Position numbers and translations under genes: made by a program. 37,660 nt of DNA from an uncultured Methanosarcinales archaeon (GTDB taxonomy: Archaea; Nanobdellota; Nanobdellia; Woesearchaeales; GW2011-AR9): positions 1 through 37,660 of the forward strand of contig CAZCXW010000006.1 of the NCBI GenBank assembly GCA_964502785.1, given 5' to 3'. Below the pieces are notes generated by a model. The model searched no databases. It was given only the letters and a program-made list of their open reading frames with translations, and was not told the origin of the DNA. Below, in pieces: positions 7,910 to 36,726 of this stretch (within the stretch, counting starts at the first letter, position 1; each line of letters begins with the position of its first letter).

Positions 7910-8487
7910 TTAAAGCAATTATTTTTGATTGGGGCGGTGTACTAGCTCCAGCTGATACAGAAATTGCCGCAATGAAACTCTCTAAACAATATAGTTGCGA
8001 CTTTGACCTTCTTAAACAGAAAATAAATGCTTATGAGAAAGAATGTTCTGATGGTGAAGATTATTCATTATTTTTAAAGAAGATTCAACAAGAATTTAGA
8101 ATTCCCTCTGCTGAATTAATCAAAGCTTTAGTTGAAATTCCTCCCGGAGAAGGTCTAAATATTGCTCGGCAGCTATCTAAAAGATTGAAAAAGTGTATTC
8201 TTTCCAACCAAATGCAATTTAAAGCTGATTATATTAAAATGAATTACGATCTTTCTTTTTTTAATCATGTTTTATTTTCAAGTGAAATTGGTGTTCAAAA
8301 GCCTTCAGAAAAAGCATTTAAAATCATTCTAGATCGATTAAATGAATTGCCGATGAATTGTTTGTTTGTTGATGATAAACTTGAAAATATCCAGATTGCG
8401 CAAAAATTAGGATTTCAAGTAATTCTTTGTAAGAATATTAATATTTTAGAGAATGGAATAAAAAAAGTTACAAAAGAATCTATTTAA
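7906..8487 (+). CDS. HAD-superfamily hydrolase (subfamily IA-like)
   Basis: IIFDWGGVL (motif I variant) and LFVDDKLENI (motif IV). ATGA overlap with the kinase gene. Confidence 0.7.
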   Translation: MIKAIIFDWGGVLAPADTEIAAMKLSKQYSCDFDLLKQKINAYEKECSDGEDYSLFLKKIQQEFRIPSAELIKALVEIPPGEGLNIARQLSKRLKKCILSNQMQFKADYIKMNYDLSFFNHVLFSSEIGVQKPSEKAFKIILDRLNELPMNCLFVDDKLENIQIAQKLGFQVILCKNINILENGIKKVTKESI

Positions 8488-9367
8488 CCACAATCTTGCT
8501 GTCCTGCGTGCTCATAATTCCATCAACAATAATACACGTTCCAGGTTTCGTAAATGTCCATTCGAATTTCTCTCCGGTTTTGAACGTTTTGCTGCGGACT
8601 TCACGGCAGCTGCGCACGCCAATAATCATCCCTTGCCCAACTTTTCCGGAACGGACAAGCTCCCAAGTAACCGTATCTCCTGCTTTAATCTCCAAAACTT
8701 TCGGATCAAAACCTATCTCCGTCATCATCACTTGATGTTTCTCCGTTCTTTTCGTTTCGGGAAGGACTCCCTCCGTTTCCTTTGTTTTTTCTTGCTGTTC
8801 TCCTTCCGTTTTCTGCTCTTCTTTTTTAACTTCTACAGATACTTTTTCCTCCGCGGGTTCTACTTTGGCGACAACATTACTCGTAATCGTGGATCCCTCA
8901 GAAGCCTCTTTAGAAGAAGTATCTTCTTTTTCTTTGGTAAAGAAACTTGTGACACGCAAGGCTAAAGAAGCGAAAGTAAATTTAATTTTATTTCCAAGTC
9001 CCATTACATTATATGTAATTTTTTTTGACTTTAATGCATCCTGGAAGGCGGTTAATGGATTTTCAGCACTCATAATTGTTTCAATGACAACTTGTTCCAC
9101 ATATACTTTTAATGTTGGCTTTTCCACTCCTTTGTCATTAACTTCAGCAAGAATTCCATCTTCCGTGACGATTCCATATGTTGATTCCTGGCCACCAGTC
9201 CTACTAATATAAATGTTAATGCGCTGATCCCCAAATAAAGGTCTGGCAAACGATGGCAATTCCGCTCCTTTCGCTATTTCTTCAGGCAAAAGTGTTTGCG
9301 GCGCTTCAGCAATCACAAAAGAGCTGATTATTATTATACTGAATATGAAAACGATTAATTTTCTCAT
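8480..9367 (-). CDS. secreted/anchored protein with C-terminal cupredoxin-like domain lacking Cu ligands
   Basis: I prefer the start MRKLIVFIFSIIIISSFVIAEA (signal/anchor) at 9367. There is an E/K-rich linker. The C-terminus LEIKAGDTVTWEL...FTKPGTCIIVDGIMS follows the cupredoxin pattern, but both His ligands are absent. Confidence 0.45.
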   Translation of the reverse strand: MRKLIVFIFSIIIISSFVIAEAPQTLLPEEIAKGAELPSFARPLFGDQRINIYISRTGGQESTYGIVTEDGILAEVNDKGVEKPTLKVYVEQVVIETIMSAENPLTAFQDALKSKKITYNVMGLGNKIKFTFASLALRVTSFFTKEKEDTSSKEASEGSTITSNVVAKVEPAEEKVSVEVKKEEQKTEGEQQEKTKETEGVLPETKRTEKHQVMMTEIGFDPKVLEIKAGDTVTWELVRSGKVGQGMIIGVRSCREVRSKTFKTGEKFEWTFTKPGTCIIVDGIMSTQDSKIVVK

Positions 9368-25689: not shown

Positions 25690-25781
25690 CGAGCCTGCCC
25701 GGATTCGAACCGGGGTTTGCGGGTGTCTTTAAGCTTAGCTTTCCGAAGCCCGCCGTCCTATCCAGGCTAGACTACAGGCCC
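25690..25781 (-). tRNA. tRNA-Arg (anticodon UCG) with an 18-nt intron at position 37/38
   Basis: Hand-folded cloverleaf. Acceptor stem GGGCCUG/CAGGCUC, D stem GUCU/GGAC, anticodon stem GCGGG/CCCGC with loop CUUCGG^A, and T arm CCCGG-UUCGAAU-CCGGG. Discriminator G and no encoded CCA. The intron is at 25725-25742 (AAAGCUAAGCUUAAAGAC). 74 nt plus 18 nt gives 92 nt. Confidence 0.85.
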
Positions 25782-34568: not shown

Positions 34569-35027
34569 ATGCATCAAAACTTCCATATTTATCATGAAGC
34601 TGAAAAAATCGCGTGTGAGATACTTAACTCTCCAAATTTACCAATACCTTCTCCCAGTTGGAAGAAAGATTTTAAGCGAGTGGATCATAGTGATTATGAT
34701 TTAGTAAATAGTCAATGTAAGCGTATTGAAGTTAAATCAACCTTACAGTGGAAGCAGTTCTCAGCGAACGCAACAAGGTTTAATTCAGAGTGGCAACGGA
34801 TCCAAGTCATAATGAAACAATTGTTAGATAGTGATGGTAAAGTACTGATGTTTAAATTTGTTATAAAACAGAAAGAGAAATGGTATAATGCCACCCAGTT
34901 AGTACTAGGAGAAGGTCCTTTGTATGAAAATTCTTCAGAGATGAGAATACCTTATATTGCTGTGCGAAGAGATGCACAAAATAATTTTACTTTTGATATG
35001 AACCATTGGTGGCTTTTTAGAACCTAA
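34569..35027 (+). CDS. PD-(D/E)xK nuclease-fold protein (Hjc/restriction-endonuclease-like)
   Basis: An N-terminal helix with Glu (HEAEKIACEIL), then DYDLVNSQCKRIEVKS, which fits D-x(11)-E-x-K. At 152 aa its length and layout resemble archaeal Hjc-type resolvases. Confidence 0.4.
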   Translation: MHQNFHIYHEAEKIACEILNSPNLPIPSPSWKKDFKRVDHSDYDLVNSQCKRIEVKSTLQWKQFSANATRFNSEWQRIQVIMKQLLDSDGKVLMFKFVIKQKEKWYNATQLVLGEGPLYENSSEMRIPYIAVRRDAQNNFTFDMNHWWLFRT

Positions 35028-35046
35028 ACAGAAACATTAAGATTCT

Positions 35047-35484
35047 TTGAATTATATTTCAAATTCTCATCTATCACATTTCCCTTCTTTTCGAGACGAA
35101 TGGAAGTATGGAGAACAAAAAATAGAATTTAACAAGCGGGCCCAATTGCTTGCTGCGAATTTAAGTTATAAAGTTGGTCATTTGAGTAACGTAGATCAGT
35201 TAACTGCCTGTGCAGATTATAAATTACCACAGGTATTACGACGGCATGGAATTTTACAATACGATGAGGAACTACAAAGAAAAATTAGACATCTCAAAGA
35301 AATTCCTGCTGGAAGTGGCGAGGAAATAGAAATTCGCGCTCACACCATCTACGCTGTCGAATTAATTAAAGAGGAAATAAAATGTTTAACCTCTTCACAA
35401 ATAAATGATTTATTGTGGCTTGAAGGACAAATTAAAATGCGCACAGATGAGCCTTATCATCGGACAAGAACGATAGCATACTAA
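35047..35484 (+). pseudogene. queuosine-salvage QNG1 (DUF2419) family, C-terminal about 45 percent only
   Basis: FPSFRDE..FNKRAQLLAANL..ADYKLPQVLRRHGILQYDEEL..EIEIRAHTIYAVELI..HRTRTIAY parallels the C-terminal half of human QNG1/C9orf64 as I recall it. It has a TTG start and an in-frame TAA 2 codons upstream. Confidence 0.55.
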
Positions 35485-35534
35485 TTTCTCACTTTCACCT
35501 AAATCTTTATTAGCCACTATCTTCTTTCTAGGAT

Positions 35535-36164
35535 ATGGTGAAATCTTTACTTCAAGACTGGCTCGAAGATTCATATCTGAAAACAAAACCAGAAACATTA
35601 CAGCAAACATTCCATTCAGCTCAACCTTTTCCTCATCTTGTGTTGGCTGATTTCTTCAAAAAAGAAAAGATCATTCTCGTCCTTAAAGCTTTGGCGCAAG
35701 AAAAGTTTATCCTTAAAGACGCGGATTTATTTACTTTCTTGCAAACGGATGATCTCGTGAGCAGTCAAAATAAAACTCTACAAGAGTTTCGTTCTTTCTT
35801 GGCATCAACAGACTTTACTGCGTGGTTATCATCAATCACTGACATCCCCTTAAAATCTCAAAGTATCGACATTGCTGGCACAGTCTATGAAAGTACGCAT
35901 TACCTTCTTCCACACGACGATCAATTGGAAGGAAGAAAAATCGCTTATTTTCTGTATCTTTCAAATCTTACGGAAAAAGAAGGAGGGGCTTTAACTCTGT
36001 ACTCATCTCAAGATAAGCAACCTACAACGATCACAAAAAAAATTATCCCGCAGTTTAACACTTTTTCATTCTTCCAGGTTTCCACGATTTCATTTCATCA
36101 AGTTCAAGAGATTCTGAGCGACACGCAACGCATTACCGTCAGCGGGTGGTTTCATGGAAATTAA
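35535..36164 (+). CDS. OGFOD1/Tpa1/Ofd1-like 2OG-Fe(II) prolyl hydroxylase, catalytic DSBH domain
   Basis: ADLFTFLQTDDL, LLPHDDQLEGRKIAYFLYL (HxD, His at 35913-35915), GGALTLY, SFHQVQEI (distal His) and RITVSGWFHG. Confidence 0.75.
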   Translation: MVKSLLQDWLEDSYLKTKPETLQQTFHSAQPFPHLVLADFFKKEKIILVLKALAQEKFILKDADLFTFLQTDDLVSSQNKTLQEFRSFLASTDFTAWLSSITDIPLKSQSIDIAGTVYESTHYLLPHDDQLEGRKIAYFLYLSNLTEKEGGALTLYSSQDKQPTTITKKIIPQFNTFSFFQVSTISFHQVQEILSDTQRITVSGWFHGN

Positions 36165-36726
36165 TTCCACTTATTTACAACCTAAAATTAGAATGAATAT
36201 CCAGAAGAGTTTTCATCTACTGAAAGATCTTCCTTCGGTAGCGCTTTTTGATTTCTGGGAACCTCTTTTTTATACCAAATTTCAACAACAAATTAAGACT
36301 CTAGATTTTCAACAGGAAAAAATCATTTTATCTCATTCCTTTGCTGAAGCTAAGTCTTTCTCTCCGATGCAAGAAACTTTTGATAAGAAAGATTTTCTCG
36401 AGTTTTTATCTTTAATTTTAAGTAAAAAAATAAAAAATATTGCTCCGCAAATTCTATCATTCCAGCATCGCGATTATACTATCCTTAATGACGCAACTGA
36501 AGAAAGAGCAGGAATCGATTTAATTTTTAATCTTGCTGATAACTGGAATGACGACTGGGGTGGTTATGTTGTTTATGCCACCGGGGATGGGGATTATATT
36601 CCTATAACTACAAAAGGAAATACTTTAACCATCATTTCCAGAAAAAAAGGAATAAACAAATTTGTCAAATATGTTAATCATAAAGCAGGAAAAGAAAAAA
36701 TGTATTTTGTAATGATTACTGTTTAG
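36154..36726 (+). CDS. OGFOD1/Ofd1 C-terminal degenerate DSBH domain (Ofd1_CTDD-like) as a separate ORF
   Basis: FQHRDYTILND, GIDLIFNL, WGGYVVYA and NTLTIISRKKGINKFVKYVNH parallel the C-terminal domain of OGFOD1 as I recall it. It overlaps the upstream ORF by 11 nt in the +1 frame. Confidence 0.65.
   Translation: MEINSTYLQPKIRMNIQKSFHLLKDLPSVALFDFWEPLFYTKFQQQIKTLDFQQEKIILSHSFAEAKSFSPMQETFDKKDFLEFLSLILSKKIKNIAPQILSFQHRDYTILNDATEERAGIDLIFNLADNWNDDWGGYVVYATGDGDYIPITTKGNTLTIISRKKGINKFVKYVNHKAGKEKMYFVMITV

Follow-up and report, generated by a model that had tools for sequence, protein, structure and literature searches.

The 37,660-nucleotide stretch of archaeal contig CAZCXW010000006.1 analysed here (the window) carries a two-gene operon that probably encodes a two-subunit form of the eukaryotic OGFOD1/Tpa1/Ofd1 enzyme, whose presumed target is a prolyl residue in the ribosomal protein uS12. 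The first open reading frame (ORF1) is predicted to provide an active prolyl hydroxylase dependent on Fe(II), 2-oxoglutarate (2OG) and O2. The second (ORF2) would provide a non-catalytic second double-stranded beta-helix, the counterpart of the C-terminal domain that eukaryotes carry in the same chain. Both ORFs lie exactly where a preliminary description had placed them, with the 11-nucleotide overlap and the +1 frame that it reported. The features of the locus are as follows.

35535-36164, + strand: ORF1, predicted catalytic subunit of 209 amino acids and start of the two-gene operon
36154-36726, + strand: ORF2, predicted non-catalytic subunit of 190 amino acids, in the +1 frame relative to ORF1
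36154-36164, + strand: 11-nucleotide overlap of ORF1 and ORF2, with the ORF2 ATG within the CAT-GGA (His-Gly) codons of ORF1
36162-36164, + strand: ORF1 stop codon TAA, inside the overlap
36144-36149, + strand: Shine-Dalgarno-like GGGTGG in the Gly-Trp codons of ORF1, ending 4 nucleotides before the ORF2 ATG
35506-35512, + strand: TATA-like box TTTATTA, 29 nucleotides upstream of the ORF1 start, recognized from the sequence
35913-35921, + strand: codons H127-D128-D129, predicted HxD of the Fe(II) triad, aligned to OGFOD1 His155 and Asp157
36096-36098, + strand: codon H188, predicted distal Fe(II) ligand, aligned to OGFOD1 His218 and invariant
36129-36137, + strand: codons R199-I200-T201, RxS/T motif predicted to bind the 2-oxoglutarate C-5 carboxylate, aligned to OGFOD1 Arg230-x-Ser232

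ORF1 is predicted to be a 2OG/Fe(II) oxygenase and the ortholog of the N-terminal domain (NTD) of OGFOD1 and Tpa1. It matches the Pfam family 2OG-FeII_Oxy_4 with an E-value of 1.5e-28. Among the sequences of the PDB, the best match is the N-terminal half of human OGFOD1 (6.4e-37), followed by yeast Tpa1 (6e-15), and the next match stands at 8e-3. The AlphaFold model of ORF1 has a predicted local distance difference test (pLDDT) score of 96.3. Its best Foldseek matches are OGFOD1, with a template modelling (TM) score of 0.88, and Tpa1, with 0.89 (0.87-0.90 for the OGFOD1/Tpa1 structures); the next-best structures, among them PolD, PasI, PPHD and PHD2, score no higher than 0.75. Aligned by Foldseek with the human catalytic domain, ORF1 shows 36% identity. 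A weak, sub-threshold NCBIfam match to YhhC was set aside.

Compared with the functional residues of OGFOD1 described by Horita et al. 2015 (PMC4396695), ORF1 retains, as judged by alignment, every one of them. The metal triad H127, D129 and H188 (OGFOD1 H155, D157 and H218) and R199 are invariant across 22 aligned homologs, as are L65, F66, L124 and R134, the counterparts of OGFOD1 L95, Y96, L152 and R162; the exchange of Y96 for Phe is conservative. R199-x-T201 corresponds to R230-x-S232, and position 201 is T, S or A among the 22 homologs. The 2OG-binding Y141 is present in the window ORF1, and the position is Tyr in 15 of the 22. In OGFOD1, mutation of L95, Y96, L152 or R162 reduced uS12 hydroxylation in cells, and Leu152 sets the 3-hydroxylases apart from PHD2. 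The L95/Y96 hairpin is required for activity and is situated at the interface where the NTD meets the C-terminal domain, CTD (PMC4396695).

ORF2 is, as predicted from sequence and model, a degenerate double-stranded beta-helix orthologous to the CTD of OGFOD1, Ofd1 and Tpa1. It matches Pfam Ofd1_CTDD (PF10637) at 6e-14 and 52.6 bits (cut-off 27), and its PDB sequence match covers positions 463-547 of the OGFOD1 chain, within the CTD (2.3e-8). Chance cannot account for matches of this strength in either ORF. The AlphaFold model (pLDDT 95.9) is closest in Foldseek to OGFOD1 (TM 0.87), the CTD of S. pombe Ofd1 (6e0t, 0.81) and Tpa1 (about 0.8). Alignment to the ORF1 family with hhalign places N112 at the position of the His ligand (H127) and A114 at that of the Asp ligand (D129). 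V171 occupies the distal-His position in a manual alignment by strand register and motif, as the hhalign alignment ends before that strand. A complete metal triad occurs in none of the 82 members of the ORF2 family. The motif FVKYVNH.A is invariant in this family and common to the eukaryotic CTDs. Public annotation puts the start of ORF2 at Met14 (36193); N4 and Y7, which lie upstream of Met14, are conserved in the family, which makes the overlapping ATG at 36154 preferable as the start.

The sequence blocks quoted in the preliminary description are all present, namely DLFTFLQTDDL, LLPHDDQLEGRKIAYFLYL, GGALTLY, SFHQVQEILS and SGWFHG in ORF1, and DYTILND, IDLIF, WGGYVVYA and NTL...FVKYVNH in ORF2. 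ORF1 ends at the GWFHG motif, which is the domain boundary, and the split thus falls where that description had put it. The loss of the iron ligands in ORF2, which it had also claimed, is borne out by the N112 and A114 substitutions and by the count of 0 full triads in 82 relatives. Its assignment of ORF2 to the Ofd1 C-terminal family agrees with an Ofd1_CTDD score well above the cut-off (52.6 bits against 27), and the best sequence and structure matches of both ORFs are OGFOD1, Tpa1 and Ofd1 rather than generic bacterial P4H-like oxygenases.

The two archaeal families correspond to the two eukaryotic domains separately. A profile of the ORF1 family matches the NTDs of eukaryotic OGFOD1 proteins strongly and their CTDs weakly, and the ORF2-family profile behaves in the opposite way, matching eukaryotic CTDs with per-domain E-values of about 1e-9 to 2e-34 (1e-14 to 1e-38 for whole proteins). 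The ORF1 and ORF2 families are in turn homologous to one another (hhalign probability 99.2). Together, these relationships indicate that the domain duplication is older than the separation of the archaeal form from the eukaryotic one.

Human OGFOD1, Drosophila Sudestada1 and S. pombe Ofd1 are uS12/RPS23 prolyl 3-hydroxylases, and both archaeal domains match theirs one to one. Common to all are the HxD...H triad, the RxS/T motif, the Leu of 3-hydroxylases, the residues of the beta4-beta5 hairpin and a degenerate second double-stranded beta-helix with the motif FVK(Y/H)(V/I)NH. In contrast to these enzymes, the archaeal form consists of two polypeptides from overlapping genes, with a compact C-terminal module of 190 amino acids, and it has neither the proline-rich linker of about 30 residues nor the acidic disordered insert. 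S. cerevisiae Tpa1, a uS12 prolyl 3,4-dihydroxylase, shares the two-domain fold (TM 0.89 for ORF1, about 0.8 for ORF2), but is less similar to ORF1 than OGFOD1 is (6e-15 versus 6e-37). Tpa1 hydroxylates twice, binds Ett1 through its CTD and features a 95-residue helical linker and dimerisation inserts, the latter absent from the archaeal pair. The bacterial single-domain prolyl hydroxylases (Pseudomonas PPHD, which acts on EF-Tu, and P4H-like proteins, COG3751) are likewise stand-alone proteins of about 200 amino acids with the same fold and cofactors. They are, however, a much weaker match to ORF1 (Foldseek TM 0.66-0.67, 12-14% identity), lack an Ofd1_CTDD-type partner and differ in finger loop and substrate. 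As a whole, the archaeal pair has the catalytic triad and RxS motif of the OGFOD1 subfamily, its groove residues and its Ofd1_CTDD second domain, and is closest to OGFOD1 and Tpa1; it departs from the subfamily in being neither a single polypeptide with a linker nor restricted to eukaryotes.

The split into two genes is conserved far beyond the window. The closest relatives of ORF2 are all stand-alone proteins of about 170-190 amino acids, and every contig that carries one has a 2OG-FeII_Oxy_4 gene directly upstream, overlapping by 8-14 nucleotides. A scan of prokaryotic genomes with an ORF1-family pattern, one genome per species, yielded 80 loci. An ORF2-family gene follows ORF1 at all 78 loci that could be evaluated, and the remaining 2 of the 80 end at the end of a contig. 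Across these 78 loci, whose ORF1 is 38-57% identical to that of the window, ORF2 lies in the +1 frame in nearly every case. The overlap measures 8 nucleotides in 54 loci and 11 in 15, with a few near-identical contigs from the same organisms counted as well.

The junction itself follows the consensus GG(G) TGG TT(T/C) NAT GGN (NNN) stop, in which the last two bases of a CAT, TAT or AAT codon, together with the G of the codon that follows, make up the ORF2 ATG. This ATG is kept in 70 of 77 loci, where the codon after GW(F/Y/L) is CAT, TAT or AAT followed by G, and it persists when the encoded residue varies among His, Tyr and Asn. The codon is NAT rather than NAC in 71 of 75 loci, against a background of 67% in the same genes (p 5e-9), and the Gly before the Trp has the codon GGG at 48 of 77 loci, where the background is 11% (binomial p 1e-26); these p-values ignore shared ancestry, and we regard the direction as clear. 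This pattern shows selection at synonymous sites on an internal ORF2 start and its ribosome-binding motif. As read from these junctions, ORF2 is translated on its own, from 36154, and coupled to ORF1. A start codon and a ribosome-binding motif under selection inside the upstream gene are what a coupled, overlapping gene pair displays.

Five loci (L017, L025, L044, L061 and L077) depart from the junction consensus, and both genes are kept in all of them. In four, ORF2 begins 4-10 nucleotides past the ORF1 stop or overlaps it by 1 nucleotide (TAATG); in L061, the genes are 768 nucleotides apart.

An 11-nucleotide overlap with the second ORF in the +1 frame is also what a 1-nucleotide indel would leave behind. 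One could thus suppose that a single OGFOD1-like fusion gene was disrupted, whether by an error of sequencing or assembly or by a recent pseudogenising frameshift, and a frameshifted fusion was among the explanations offered in the preliminary description. We give this explanation practically no credence, and consider it refuted by the recurrence of the split in 78 species-level loci at 38-57% ORF1 identity and by the retention, at synonymous sites, of the junction ATG and the upstream GGG, pointing to selection on the internal start and ribosome-binding site. Furthermore, a second, separate assembly (Logan, run SRR12113424) agrees at 100% identity across 1099 nucleotides spanning the junction, which contains no homopolymer. 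The archaeal genes also hold no counterpart of the eukaryotic linker, so that separate subunits look like the native state, and a simple 1-nucleotide repair would not yield a normal fused enzyme. The prevalence of the +1 frame and the high conservation of the junction sequence could alternatively reflect programmed +1 ribosomal frameshifting close to the ORF1 end, with the frame relation conserved for the sake of a fused two-domain protein. This is very improbable. The conserved ATG and the GGGTGG 4 nucleotides upstream of it are signals for independent initiation, not a slippery or hungry-codon site, and the ATG is retained through the His, Tyr and Asn changes. A few loci with genes separated by 4-768 nucleotides or in another frame nevertheless keep both genes, which does not fit a frameshifted gene, and a fusion without linker would differ from all known fused members.

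Transcription of the two-gene operon probably starts from the TATA-like box upstream of ORF1, giving a leaderless or short-leader transcript. A similar box is found at -27 to -31 of the start codon in about a dozen other genes of the window, where Shine-Dalgarno-like motifs are rare, and this suggests that its transcripts are mostly leaderless, as in many archaea. TATA-like, A/T-rich boxes precede, for example, the genes at 2821, 5892, 10766, 18299, 21617, 24246, 30589 and 35535. The box at -29 of ORF1 fits an arrangement in which the first gene is leaderless and the second depends on a Shine-Dalgarno motif. ORF1 would then probably be translated from the leaderless or short-leader mRNA, and ORF2 from the ATG within the last His-Gly codons of ORF1, behind GGGTGG, which would favour joint production of the two chains.

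We postulate that ORF1 and ORF2 pack as a heterodimer in the manner of the NTD and CTD of OGFOD1, because of the strict pairing of the genes, their coupled translation, the conserved interface hairpin and the missing linker. When oxygen is present, the complex would hydroxylate the conserved decoding-centre prolyl residue of uS12, the presumed equivalent of human RPS23 Pro62, and it may thereby affect translation. Beyond the pair itself, we found no conserved neighbours; TatD, DNA ligase and dCTP deaminase genes each occur in 12-13 of 77 loci. In Woesearchaeota GCA_016181345.1 and its relatives (L002-L007), the pair is divergent from an exosome operon (Rrp4, Rrp41, Rrp42 and RpoK), and SBDS lies two genes from the hydroxylase pair. 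This neighbourhood is at most a weak hint at a link to the ribosome.

Several points weigh against a two-subunit uS12 hydroxylase. An O2-dependent enzyme sits awkwardly with the anaerobic life attributed to many DPANN archaea. The uS12 gene does not lie in the 37,660-nucleotide window, and its presence would not discriminate, since the target proline in the PNSA loop is universally conserved. The exosome and SBDS neighbourhood is confined to one lineage, with other arrangements in most lineages, and lends weak support to a role in translation. Finally, the surface buried between the NTD and CTD of OGFOD1 is modest, about 700 square angstroms (PMC4396695), so that separate chains need not form a stable complex.

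Most of the 80 loci come from Woesearchaeota or Nanoarchaeota assemblies, and further ones from Poseidoniales, Thalassarchaeaceae and other marine Thermoplasmatota. No Asgard sequences are among the 80 loci kept from the species scan. A record titled 'MAG: bacterium' (L016, 4148-4939) has an archaeal PCNA gene beside the pair, which identifies it as a mislabelled archaeal contig. A second record, binned as Candidatus Buchananbacteria (L010), carries the pair among uninformative neighbours. A word-indexed search returned 143 matches to the ORF1 family, nearly all of 190-230 amino acids; these proteins end at GWFHG or no more than a few residues from it, with three exceptions that have a tail of about 13 residues. 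In public records, ORF1 homologs are labelled "2OG-Fe(II) oxygenase family protein" or generically Tpa1-like, and the sole named ORF2 homolog is a "hypothetical protein".

The ORF2 profile retrieves 1013 clusters at 50% identity, 698 of them at E-values up to 1e-10. Among the best 150 of these 1013 clusters, 146 are stand-alone proteins of about 110-225 amino acids and four are long. One of the four is, judged from its sequence, an apparently misassembled animal OGFOD1, another is from the fungus Rozella, and a third is a metagenome protein that is protist-like by sequence. The fourth (P0203) is a compact, fused OGFOD1-like protein of 426 amino acids, encoded at 8001-9281 of a 23 kb Logan contig of SRR6202010 (L088). 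The protein clusters with sequences from eukaryotes, to which it is about 40% identical, and it probably reflects a transfer from a eukaryote to a bacterium. The L088 contig is gene-dense and bacterial-looking, with DsbD, AhpC, radical SAM, GT2 and pyruvate kinase genes. Compact fused forms of 409-419 amino acids on long contigs were also considered as prokaryotic candidates and rejected, the one checked (P0386) lying on a eukaryotic contig.

Neighbour-joining trees were built for each domain, with eukaryotes represented mostly by opisthokonts and amoebozoans. Archaea and eukaryotes are separated at 99% bootstrap in the NTD tree and 90% in the CTD tree, and a clan of the Poseidoniales has 100% support. 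With the other domain used as the root of each tree, a root that forms a long branch, the eukaryotes are monophyletic (99% and 79%) and the archaea are not (2%), which places the root within archaeal diversity. These paralog-rooted trees argue against a recent transfer from eukaryotes to archaea, and they are in keeping with an origin in archaea and a later fusion in eukaryotes.

Two further explanations accept the pair as a genuine member of the OGFOD1 lineage and differ from our proposal in substrate or in origin. The enzyme could act on something other than uS12, such as another component of translation or a small molecule. The uS12 assignment of the archaeal pair comes from homology, the substrates of the fold vary (the related bacterial PPHD acts on EF-Tu, 4iw3, and PolD and PasI act on small molecules), and the gene neighbourhood is uninformative in most lineages. 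Yet ORF1 shares 36% identity with the human catalytic domain, keeps the residues that mutagenesis defined for uS12 hydroxylation, including Leu124 (Leu152 in OGFOD1), and retains the family-specific second domain as its partner. The decoding-loop sequence of uS12 is also highly conserved between archaea and eukaryotes. On balance, another substrate seems unlikely. Still less probable is that the pair descends from a eukaryotic OGFOD1 gene that was transferred, split in two and then spread among DPANN archaea and Poseidoniales. The patchy archaeal distribution (DPANN lineages and Poseidoniales, with no Asgard match among the 80 loci) would suit such a history, as would the equal similarity of ORF1 to eukaryotic and Poseidoniales sequences. 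Transfer within the family also seems to occur, as the fused, eukaryote-grouping form on a bacterial-looking contig illustrates, and simple trees with narrow eukaryote sampling and a long paralog root leave room for an ancient transfer from a stem eukaryote. Against this history stand the separation of archaea and eukaryotes (99% and 90%) and the paralog-rooted trees with monophyletic eukaryotes and non-monophyletic archaea, and it would further require a fission in which the linker was lost and a coupled start arose.

A eukaryote-to-archaeon transfer was one of the three explanations put forward in the preliminary description, next to the frameshifted fusion and an ancestral archaeal form. 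The neighbour-joining trees, in which archaea are not nested in the eukaryotic clade, argue against a recent transfer, and with the frameshift refuted, an old archaeal two-gene form is the best reading of the three. We tentatively extend this to a scenario that is possible, though we would not call it probable: the archaeal two-gene operon may represent the ancestral OGFOD1, with the duplication and O2-dependent hydroxylation of the decoding centre arising in archaea, and the eukaryotic single chain formed later by fusion and gain of a linker. If true, oxygen-linked control of translation would date to before or at the origin of eukaryotes.

These observations bear on published statements about the distribution of the family. 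Enzymes of the OGFOD1 subfamily have been described as found only in eukaryotes, with the prolyl hydroxylases of prokaryotes being single-domain (Horita et al. 2015, PMC4396695). A 2015 review (PMC4543633) describes the hydroxylation of proteins by 2OG oxygenases as common among eukaryotes and in many prokaryotes, though not among archaea, and ribosomal oxygenases appear absent from archaea according to a 2018 paper (PMC5862935). The locus and its relatives contradict both the eukaryote-only and the absent-from-archaea statements. Our literature searches found no paper describing archaeal members of the OGFOD1 family; an archaeal "Tpa1" that they returned is an unrelated transporter abbreviation. 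The ORF2 family is large, with about a thousand clusters at 50% identity. The existence of the pair would imply that many DPANN and marine Group II/III archaea meet enough oxygen for an O2-dependent modification of the ribosome. The split form furthermore offers a natural experiment on the non-catalytic domain, as each half can be expressed and mutated without the other, and it bears on the origin of the eukaryotic enzyme, by gene fusion or by fission.

The surroundings of the operon are archaeal in character. Neighbouring genes encode Cdc48 with its N-domain, TrmB, a type IV prepilin-like peptidase, topoisomerase IA and a P-type ATPase, as well as an M50 protease, ZIP and GDT1 transporters and a UDG-family protein. 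Guanine-plus-cytosine content at the locus is 0.32-0.38, which falls within the 0.32-0.44 seen over the final 10 kb of the window. The archaeal setting noted in the preliminary description holds: with Cdc48, TrmB, an intron-like tRNA insert, leaderless-type promoters and no compositional break, there is no sign of a chimeric or contaminated contig. The tRNA gene in question (25690-25781, - strand; 50.4 bits with Rfam, missed by ARAGORN) contains a 21-nucleotide insert in the anticodon-loop region that looks like an archaeal-type intron.

Immediately before the operon, an ORF of 145 amino acids with a TTG start (35047-35484) matches only the C-terminal half of the Q_salvage family (QNG1/DUF2419), at profile positions 134-285 of 285. 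The ORF just upstream of it (34569-35027, 152 amino acids) has no family match. Together, the stretch 34569-35484 looks like a truncated or interrupted queuosine-salvage gene adjoining the hydroxylase pair, a family that is unexpected for an archaeon.

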